From Escherichia coli (lineage in GTDB: Bacteria; Pseudomonadota; Gammaproteobacteria; Enterobacterales; Enterobacteriaceae), in the NCBI RefSeq assembly GCF_003334355.1, contig NZ_QOWP01000093.1: a stretch of 1,224 bases of DNA; one strand, written 5' to 3'. Numbering within the stretch: position 1 is the first letter of the stretch; the number at the start of each line of letters is the position of its first letter. The notes beneath the pieces are model-generated. The model had not been told where the DNA came from and did not search any database. It saw nothing but the letters and a program-made list of their open reading frames with translations. Position numbers and translations under genes: made by a program. Below are positions 1 to 1,224 of the stretch, one piece after another.

Positions 1-1214
1 GAACTGTCTTGGTCTGCCGGGTTATAACGGTCCCAGTTGAACTTCACCCGCACGCGACCATGTTCGTCGCAGAAGATTTCCTCGCCTGCCGGTCCTGTCA
101 CGACAGCGCTCTGCGGGCCGTCGACCAGCGGTTTCAGCAACGGCTGTGGTCGCCATGTTCTGTCTGCCGGGATCACCGCAAAATGGTTCTCCAGCGCCGT
201 CCCCGCTCCCTGCCGTCCTGGCACCGCCTGTGGCTGTTCGCCGTGCAGTTCACTTGCCACCACCTGCCATTCCCGGTTCAGGTTCGCCTGCGGATGCCCC
301 GTCAGCACAATTCGCCGTCCCGGCCATATCTCCAGCGAGCGGCTCATTCCCCGCGCGGTTTCTGCGTTGTTTCGCCAGCCGTCCATCTGCCAGCGGGCAA
401 AGTTCTGCCCGTGGGCGCTCTTGAAACGTCCGGGGTAGTCATACACTTCATACTGCGTGCGCTGGTAGTCCTGGTGCTGGCCTTCCTGTTCAAAACGTCC
501 GGCCCAGCCGGGGCGTTTAAAGGTGTAGTCTTTGGTCACCACGGAAGAAGGGCGGATTTGTGCGCTGTAGCGGAACTGGCTGATGCAGAGGGTGCTCACC
601 TCGGTACGGGTGTTCGGGTTCCATGGGATTTCAAAAGATTCGGGCAGATGGCGGACTGTGTCGCACAGCACCAGGCTCTGGTCGGTACTTTTGTAAGCAT
701 GCTCCTCATAAAAGAAGATGCCTTCCTCCGCCGCCATCCGGCACAGGAAATCGTAATCAGTCTCACCGTACTGGACACAAAACTCACGGGAAGGATGCGG
801 CTCGCTGAACAGCGGACTCCATTCGGTCACCCCGTTTTCCTGCAACATCGTGCCGAGGATGCTTTTGATGTCCTCGTTCTGGAAGATACGGAAGGTCTGG
901 CGCAGACCGGCACGCCACAGCGGCGGGTGCACCTTCATGCTGTACAGCATCTGGTTTTTGTCGTTCTCCCCCAGTTCAAACCAGGTCACCACGCCTTTCA
1001 CCCGGCGCTGTACTTCATCGCCCTGCCATATCGTCAGGTAGGCCATTTTGTCCAGCACCTGCGCAAATTCAAGGGAGAGAAACTGCTGGCTGACCAGGGA
1101 GAGATCGAGGGAAAAGAGCGAAGAGAGTGACTGGTTCAGATGAAAGGAAACCACCGCAAAAGCATCCGGCGGCAGGCCGTCCACTTCCAGTGTGAAACGT
1201 AATCCGGTTGACAT
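1..1214 (-). CDS. vgrG: Type VI secretion system spike protein VgrG, N-terminal part (gp27-like hub domain plus start of gp5-like OB-fold). 5' end complete, 3' end truncated by the window edge; 404 complete codons visible.
   Basis: Hand translation of the reverse complement from the ATG at 1214-1212 gives an uninterrupted frame to position 3 (no stop in 404 codons). N-terminus: [145 protein letters not shown]... Visible C-terminus: ...[39 protein letters not shown]. This matches the VgrG / Rhs-element Vgr family (Phage_GPD-like N-terminal domain followed by a Phage_base_V-like OB-fold) from memory; no database search was run. The six-frame track does not list this ORF, presumably because it has no in-window stop. 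Confidence 0.93.
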
Positions 1215-1219
1215 AGCAA

Positions 1220-1224
1220 CCTCC
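1220..1224 (-). promoter_or_regulatory. Shine-Dalgarno ribosome-binding site for vgrG
   Basis: The reverse complement of 1212-1224 reads GGAGG-TTGCT-ATG: a perfect GGAGG core 5 nt upstream of the start codon. This supports 1214 as the true start. Confidence 0.7.

Follow-up and report, generated by a model that had tools for sequence, protein, structure and literature searches.

Introduction

The stretch of Escherichia coli DNA analysed here (the window, 1,224 nucleotides) carries the 5' part of a vgrG gene on its minus strand and breaks off shortly before the start codon. This raises the question of what stands upstream: does this vgrG follow hcp or another T6SS gene, with which it might be co-transcribed, or is it an orphan, and which promoter serves it? 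The initial annotation placed the promoter and the upstream neighbour outside the window, which is correct, as only 10 nt precede the ATG. It also held that an hcp-linked gene could not be distinguished from an orphan. This is true of the window by itself, but not once relatives are compared, as orphan copies differ from the window at 2–4 positions and hcp-linked copies at 22 or more. The upstream context was taken from relatives among 5,426 complete E. coli genomes.

In EHEC EDL933, vgrG1 (z0707), together with eagR/DUF1795 (z0706) and rhsF, and vgrG2 (z2262) form 'vgrG islands' outside the T6SS cluster, vgrG3 (z0267) is located inside the cluster, and identity among the three VgrG proteins is 90% or higher (PMC7216683). 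A review (PMC6730261) covers the study of Ma et al. 2017, in which delivery of Rhs-CT toxins was shown to require vgrGO1 and eagR. By RT-PCR in EHEC, hcp3 and vgrG3 belong to different operons, between which lie a terminator and a promoter; the same study reports the two orphan vgrG islands to be independent of the main T6SS promoter, and when the vgrG1 promoter was swapped, there was still no detectable VgrG1 or RhsF (PMC13141884). For strain Sakai, PMC7618764 describes an in vitro inactive TSS for full-length rhsF in this island (S-loop 44) and repression of the T6SS by H-NS; for a TSS upstream of vgrG1 no coordinates were found in the text consulted, where the locus is only reported as silent in vitro.

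Results

The window carries the 5' part of a VgrG gene

The features of the window on which the analysis is based are as follows:

1..1214, minus strand: 5' coding part of vgrG/tssI, with codons 1-404 and 2 further nt; the gene runs on past position 1
1212..1214, minus strand: ATG start codon of vgrG; the RefSeq CDS begins at the same ATG in all contexts
1215..1219, minus strand: 5-nt spacer TTGCT between the Shine-Dalgarno sequence and the start codon, read directly
1220..1224, minus strand: Shine-Dalgarno sequence GGAGG, read directly; the sole GGAGG-N5-ATG in the window

The minus-strand frame that begins with this ATG is open for 404 codons, up to the far end of the window. Its 404 residues matched the NCBIfam profiles TIGR03361 (VgrG/TssI; 404.6 bits, cutoff 186.35; residues 7-404 aligned with positions 1-398 of 513) and TIGR01646 (290.5 bits, cutoff 121.8), and residues 29-327 matched the gp27-like Pfam family Phage_GPD (PF05954; model 3-303 of 305, E = 6e-75). 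The window stops at residue 404, that is at profile position 398 of 513, and full-length relatives have 633-713 aa. The gene, called vgrG already in the initial annotation, thus encodes a VgrG spike protein of the T6SS-2 type of E. coli and has a canonical initiation region at 1224-1212.

The window matched genes annotated as 'type VI secretion system tip protein VgrG' in 3,594 of the 5,426 complete E. coli genomes, with a median of two matching places per genome. The best identity was 99.8%, and a 100% match was not found among these genomes. None of the matches to plasmid records was exact, and several such records were chromosome-sized. A 30-mer of the start region had no match among species-representative genomes.

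At window position 895 (minus-strand codon 107) there is a private A-to-C change, Asn107Thr, missing from all 13 compared loci including divergent paralogs; an exact 41-mer over this position gave no matches in public genome-contig and metagenome-contig collections. Either a mutation particular to the strain or an error in sequencing could account for it. Antisense to vgrG, on the plus strand, a 373-codon open reading frame with a TTG start runs over window positions 9-1130 and is most likely a shadow ORF of a GC-rich gene.

Three genomic contexts of the vgrG 5' segment

In the relatives, the 5' segment of vgrG was found in three settings:

Context A (cusS-linked): cusCFBA/cusRS, a 736-nt spacer, vgrG (633 aa), a DcrB-related (DUF1795/Eag) gene, a PAAR-Rhs toxin gene, an immunity gene and ISEc1
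Context B (yncH-linked): pqqU-yncE-ansP-yncG-yncH, an 819-nt spacer, vgrG (702 aa) and an RHS element core protein gene, which is the RhsE locus
Context C (hcp-linked): tssB...tssG divergent from hcp, a 209-nt spacer and vgrG (660-713 aa), inside the main T6SS cluster

The order cusS-spacer-vgrG was contiguous in 2,327 of the 5,426 genomes. Over the 6-8 kb upstream of vgrG, the nearest relatives carried cusCFBA-cusRS (A) or pqqU-yncE-ansP-yncG-yncH (B), and neither hcp nor any other T6SS core gene (tssB/C etc.) was present within this distance in cusS- or yncH-linked relatives. The search for an upstream ORF such as hcp proposed in the initial annotation thus led, for near-identical copies, to cusS or yncH. 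The nearest relatives are orphan islands in that T6SS core genes do not flank them, a property of the relatives that is not read in the window itself. Downstream of vgrG, all relatives had a cargo module, DcrB/DUF1795 plus Rhs in the A-type and an RHS core protein in the B-type, and in context A relatives the C-terminal toxins of Rhs varied from strain to strain.

All three contexts correspond to known EHEC loci. The A-type relatives occupy the same site downstream of cusS as the vgrG1 island of EDL933/Sakai (z0707 - z0706 - rhsF - rhsFI; 'S-loop 44'; vgrGO1), and in both vgrG is followed by a DcrB/DUF1795 gene and then a PAAR-Rhs toxin gene (PMC7216683, PMC7618764). The initiation region of that island is the same as in the window. 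The window has 95.7% identity with the O157 copy and is much nearer to the non-O157 allele (99.8%), and the leader between cusS and vgrG measures 593 nt in O157:H7 as against 736 nt in non-O157 strains. The vgrG2 island (z2262), or RhsE locus by yncH, can be identical to the cusS-type over the 5' 1,224 nt and likewise has an AT-rich leader; it differs in the length of VgrG (702 aa vs 633 aa), in having no eagR and in the Rhs protein, which is RhsE-type. Finally, vgrG3 (z0267), in the main T6SS-2 cluster with the h3R hcp3-vgrG3 region, has the same Shine-Dalgarno sequence, start and VgrG family as the window, but its spacer is 209 nt long with 53% GC and a strong terminator follows hcp (PMC13141884), and it differs from the window at 22 or more positions.

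In context C an intrinsic terminator was observed directly after hcp (locus L007, 5810-5841), with a 14-bp stem, 8 G-C pairs and a T-run, in agreement with the published h3R region I (PMC13141884).

Start site and ribosome-binding site

The minus strand reads 5'-GGAGGTTGCTATG-3' over positions 1224-1212, and the minus-strand reading of the window opens 5'-GGAGGTTGCTATGTCAACC.... Together with the next base, GGAGG forms GGAGGU, six bases complementary to the 3' end of 16S rRNA, and a distance of 5 nt to the ATG lies in the usual range for translation initiation in E. coli. The window thus has a canonical Shine-Dalgarno-led start, GGAGG(T) 5 nt from ATG. GGAGG-N5-ATG occurs once in the window, compared with 0.08 expected from shuffles, and at least once in 16 of 200 shuffles; taken alone, this count gives modest statistical support for the start. 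GGAGG by itself is not enriched (2 observed, 3.4 expected). The strength of the observation comes from its context and not from motif statistics. The 13-nt initiation region GGAGGTTGCTATG was invariant in 13 of 13 related loci from the three genomic contexts, and the visible upstream bases are therefore uninformative about context.

The N-terminus set by the ATG at 1214-1212 fits the NCBIfam VgrG profile, which begins at residue 7. In cusS-linked relatives an in-frame stop lies 53 codons upstream and in hcp-linked relatives 14 codons upstream; between stop and start there is no ATG, GTG or TTG in either, so that the annotated ATG is the first such codon past the upstream in-frame stop. In yncH-linked copies we observed an in-frame ATG (L004 5975-5977) that precedes the annotated start by 12 codons and is not separated from it by a stop. 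It was rejected as a start, having no Shine-Dalgarno sequence, being absent from the other contexts and not being used by RefSeq. The start and the ribosome-binding site given in the initial annotation were read directly in the window and did not vary among the 13 related loci, and judging from the upstream reading frames the start call at 1214-1212 stands. In RNA folding, the proximal leader and start region were less stable than shuffled controls (z = +1.74), and the prediction gives no sign of a structure that would occlude the ribosome-binding site.

The window coincides with a repeat shared by two orphan islands

In a first comparison, the A copies had 2-3 mismatches to the window, the B copies 19 or 104 and the one C copy 97. 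An assignment to the cusS-linked context only, made from the 2-3 vs 19 mismatches, was dropped once yncH-linked copies with 3-4 mismatches had appeared. Chimeric queries were composed for each context of 300 nt of the context-specific leader and the window. With the B chimera, full-length matches at 99.8% were obtained; two yncH-linked copies, L010 and L011, differed from the window at 3-4 positions, and L010 was base-identical over 1,224 nt to the A-type copies L002 and L003. The closest single copy was that of strain OW1E2 (L001), A-type, with 2 mismatches and the alleles 972G and 334T as in the window. In an approximate count, for which each full ranking was sampled in 60 steps and the identities include the 300-nt leader, about 367-428 records had an A-leader copy at 99.7% or more and 12-67 a B-leader copy, so that at this level cusS-type copies outnumber yncH-type copies at least 5:1. 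The vgrG genes linked to hcp were 92-98% identical to the window, and the best of them in the 5,426 genomes had 22 mismatches, compared with 2-4 for orphan copies; judged by these mismatch counts, a unit with hcp directly upstream does not fit the window.

Strain CUPS05 carries copies of both types, L013 (A) and L014 (B). The two are identical over exactly 1,224 nt, and they differ at positions -3 to -1 (ACT vs CAC) and at the first base past the block (G vs A). The start, the end and the length of this shared block are those of the window, which adds one feature to those given above:

1..1224, no strand assigned: exact repeat block common to cusS- and yncH-linked orphan vgrG copies, from the comparison of the CUPS05 paralogs

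In L013 and L014 the block occupies positions 1801-3024 and ends abruptly on both sides. Beyond it, identity falls to about 78% upstream, and downstream there is about 1 difference per 15-20 nt. From this pattern the block appears to be a sharp gene-conversion tract. The flanking bases recur in further genomes: GGAGG is preceded by T in A-type copies and by C in the copies of contexts B and C and in the O157 A-type copy, and the base past the far end of the window is G in A-type copies and A in 5 of 7 B/C copies.

Since the 1,224-nt A/B block coincides with the window in start, end and length, the window is most likely a collapsed-repeat contig of a short-read assembly, from an E. coli with both orphan islands; the basis for this is the coincidence of boundaries and not an assembly graph. 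The contig would end at the point where the two upstream leaders diverge, which would leave no more than 10 nt visible before the start codon. The upstream neighbour of the window is then probably two different neighbours. We consider it likely that the window belongs to an orphan setting rather than to an hcp-vgrG unit, and most likely to two orphan islands that were merged in a single contig.

The best surviving alternative, though an improbable one, is that the window comes from the cusS-linked vgrG1/vgrGO1-eagR-Rhs island alone, cut 10 nt before the start, with the 736-nt leader and cusS upstream. The match to OW1E2, cusS-linked and sharing two rare alleles with the window, and the predominance of cusS leaders among the records at 99.7% or more agree with such an origin, but it leaves the exact coincidence of the window ends and length with the A/B block unexplained. 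That the yncH-linked vgrG2-RhsE island alone gave rise to the window is very unlikely; L010 and L011 come within 3-4 mismatches, but near-identical yncH-linked copies are several-fold rarer than cusS-linked ones, the best match overall is cusS-linked, and again the coincidence of boundaries is not accounted for. An origin from the main T6SS-2 cluster, where vgrG follows hcp at a distance of about 209 nt and is possibly co-transcribed with it, is the least credible of the three and extremely unlikely, as this vgrG shares the 13-nt initiation region and most of the sequence of the window, but has no copy closer than 22 mismatches, is separated from hcp by the 14-bp-stem terminator even in this context, and in EHEC forms an operon separate from hcp3 by RT-PCR (PMC13141884).

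The leader DNA upstream of the orphan vgrG genes

The GC content of the leaders was 31-37%, compared with 54-64% in the gene, and the cusS-type 736-nt spacer had 31%. When this locus was compared with an island-less genome, in which cusS is followed by nfrB, the homology ended 3-4 codons before the cusS stop. The C-terminus of CusS accordingly changes from ...VIILPA in the island-less genome to ...VIMLPERE with the island and ...VIVLPERG in O157, each followed directly by the stop codon. The native cusS-nfrB spacer was not found in the sampled 10 kb of an island-bearing strain. As the homology stops within cusS and the native spacer is missing, the whole spacer is island DNA. On its left side, the cusS-linked island joins cusS within the final 3-4 codons of that gene (L003 7255-7274; compare L009 3175-3194). 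The AT-rich 819-nt leader at the yncH locus probably forms part of its island as well.

Over their proximal ~500 nt, the leaders of contexts A and B show homology, with an identity of about 78%. We observed a block of ~120 nt, from -453 to -335 relative to the ATG (L003 7558-7677; L004 about 5535-5655), in which the identity of the two leaders reaches 87-97%; around it, the cusS-type and yncH-type leaders are 60-80% identical. The block holds a sigma70-like sequence, TTATCA-N16-TATATT (L003 7652-7679), found independently in both leaders. In a consensus scan, however, the number of sigma70-like sites was that of chance (3 found, 3.6 expected), and TTATCA-N16-TATATT is therefore a candidate promoter only. 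The sigma54 element TGGCAC-N5-TTGCW, with up to 2 mismatches, had 9 matches in L003 and none in the 736-nt leader, the total being at the level of chance. The suggestion in the initial annotation to look upstream for sigma54 or sigma70 motifs thus yielded, in the leader of the relatives, no sigma54 site and nothing above chance for sigma70. A terminator separating vgrG from its neighbour, also proposed there, is present after hcp in context C; none was predicted between cusS and vgrG, and read-through into vgrG from cusRS is therefore possible. An Rfam scan of the leader gave no family, only two sub-threshold chance matches.

Several loci carry rearrangements at or near the leader. IS elements were observed within the AT-rich leader, IS5/ISKpn26 in OW1E2 (L001 6285-7265) and IS1A in F11 (hit H31); such insertions could alter the expression of the island. 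In K-12 (hits H198-H202) the first 243 nt of the 300-nt yncH-type leader query match at 100% and the match then stops, with an RHS (rhsE) annotation and no vgrG. In BL21 (hits H98, H262) only the first ~290-350 nt of vgrG are kept, beside a cusS-type leader. The K-12 and BL21 fragments are remnants of deleted orphan islands.

Discussion

The boundaries of the window suggest how it may have arisen. A short-read assembler would collapse the repeat into a single contig, broken off at either end where the first difference occurs; the cusS-side branch would have ...CATTTTACT upstream and G... downstream, and the yncH-side branch ...CATTTTCAC upstream and A... downstream. Gene conversion would keep the 1,224-nt segment itself the same in two orphan vgrG-Rhs islands within a genome, of which the cusS-linked island would be arranged as vgrG1/vgrGO1 - eagR (DUF1795) - PAAR-Rhs - immunity and the yncH-linked island as vgrG2 - RhsE-type Rhs. 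Homogenisation of the 5' 1.2 kb probably reflects the need for the N-terminal gp27-like part to fit the same T6SS-2 tube and baseplate, with the C-terminal part diverging for cargo specificity and the downstream cargo diverging as well.

As to expression, transcription of each island may start at a separate promoter in its AT-rich, horizontally acquired leader, and under laboratory conditions the islands may be silenced by H-NS. A tentative idea, which we think rather doubtful, is that the block at -453 to -335 is a shared cis-regulatory module, either a promoter with a ~325-nt 5' UTR or a binding platform for a regulator or RNA, which would co-ordinate or silence both islands apart from the main T6SS promoter. 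If true, this block could underlie the unexplained non-detection of VgrG1 after promoter swapping in EHEC (PMC13141884).

The orphan vgrG-Rhs islands have already been described in EHEC as vgrG1 and vgrG2, and there is no new biology in their presence here. For the scanning of genomes, the lesson is that a short window ending just before a start codon can be a collapsed paralog repeat, and questions about its neighbour may therefore have several answers. The regulatory DNA of the orphan islands lies outside the window. For E. coli, the comparison confirms a known arrangement, in which auxiliary vgrG-Rhs toxin islands differ in leader, C-terminus and cargo and the N-terminal halves of their spike genes would be kept identical by gene conversion.
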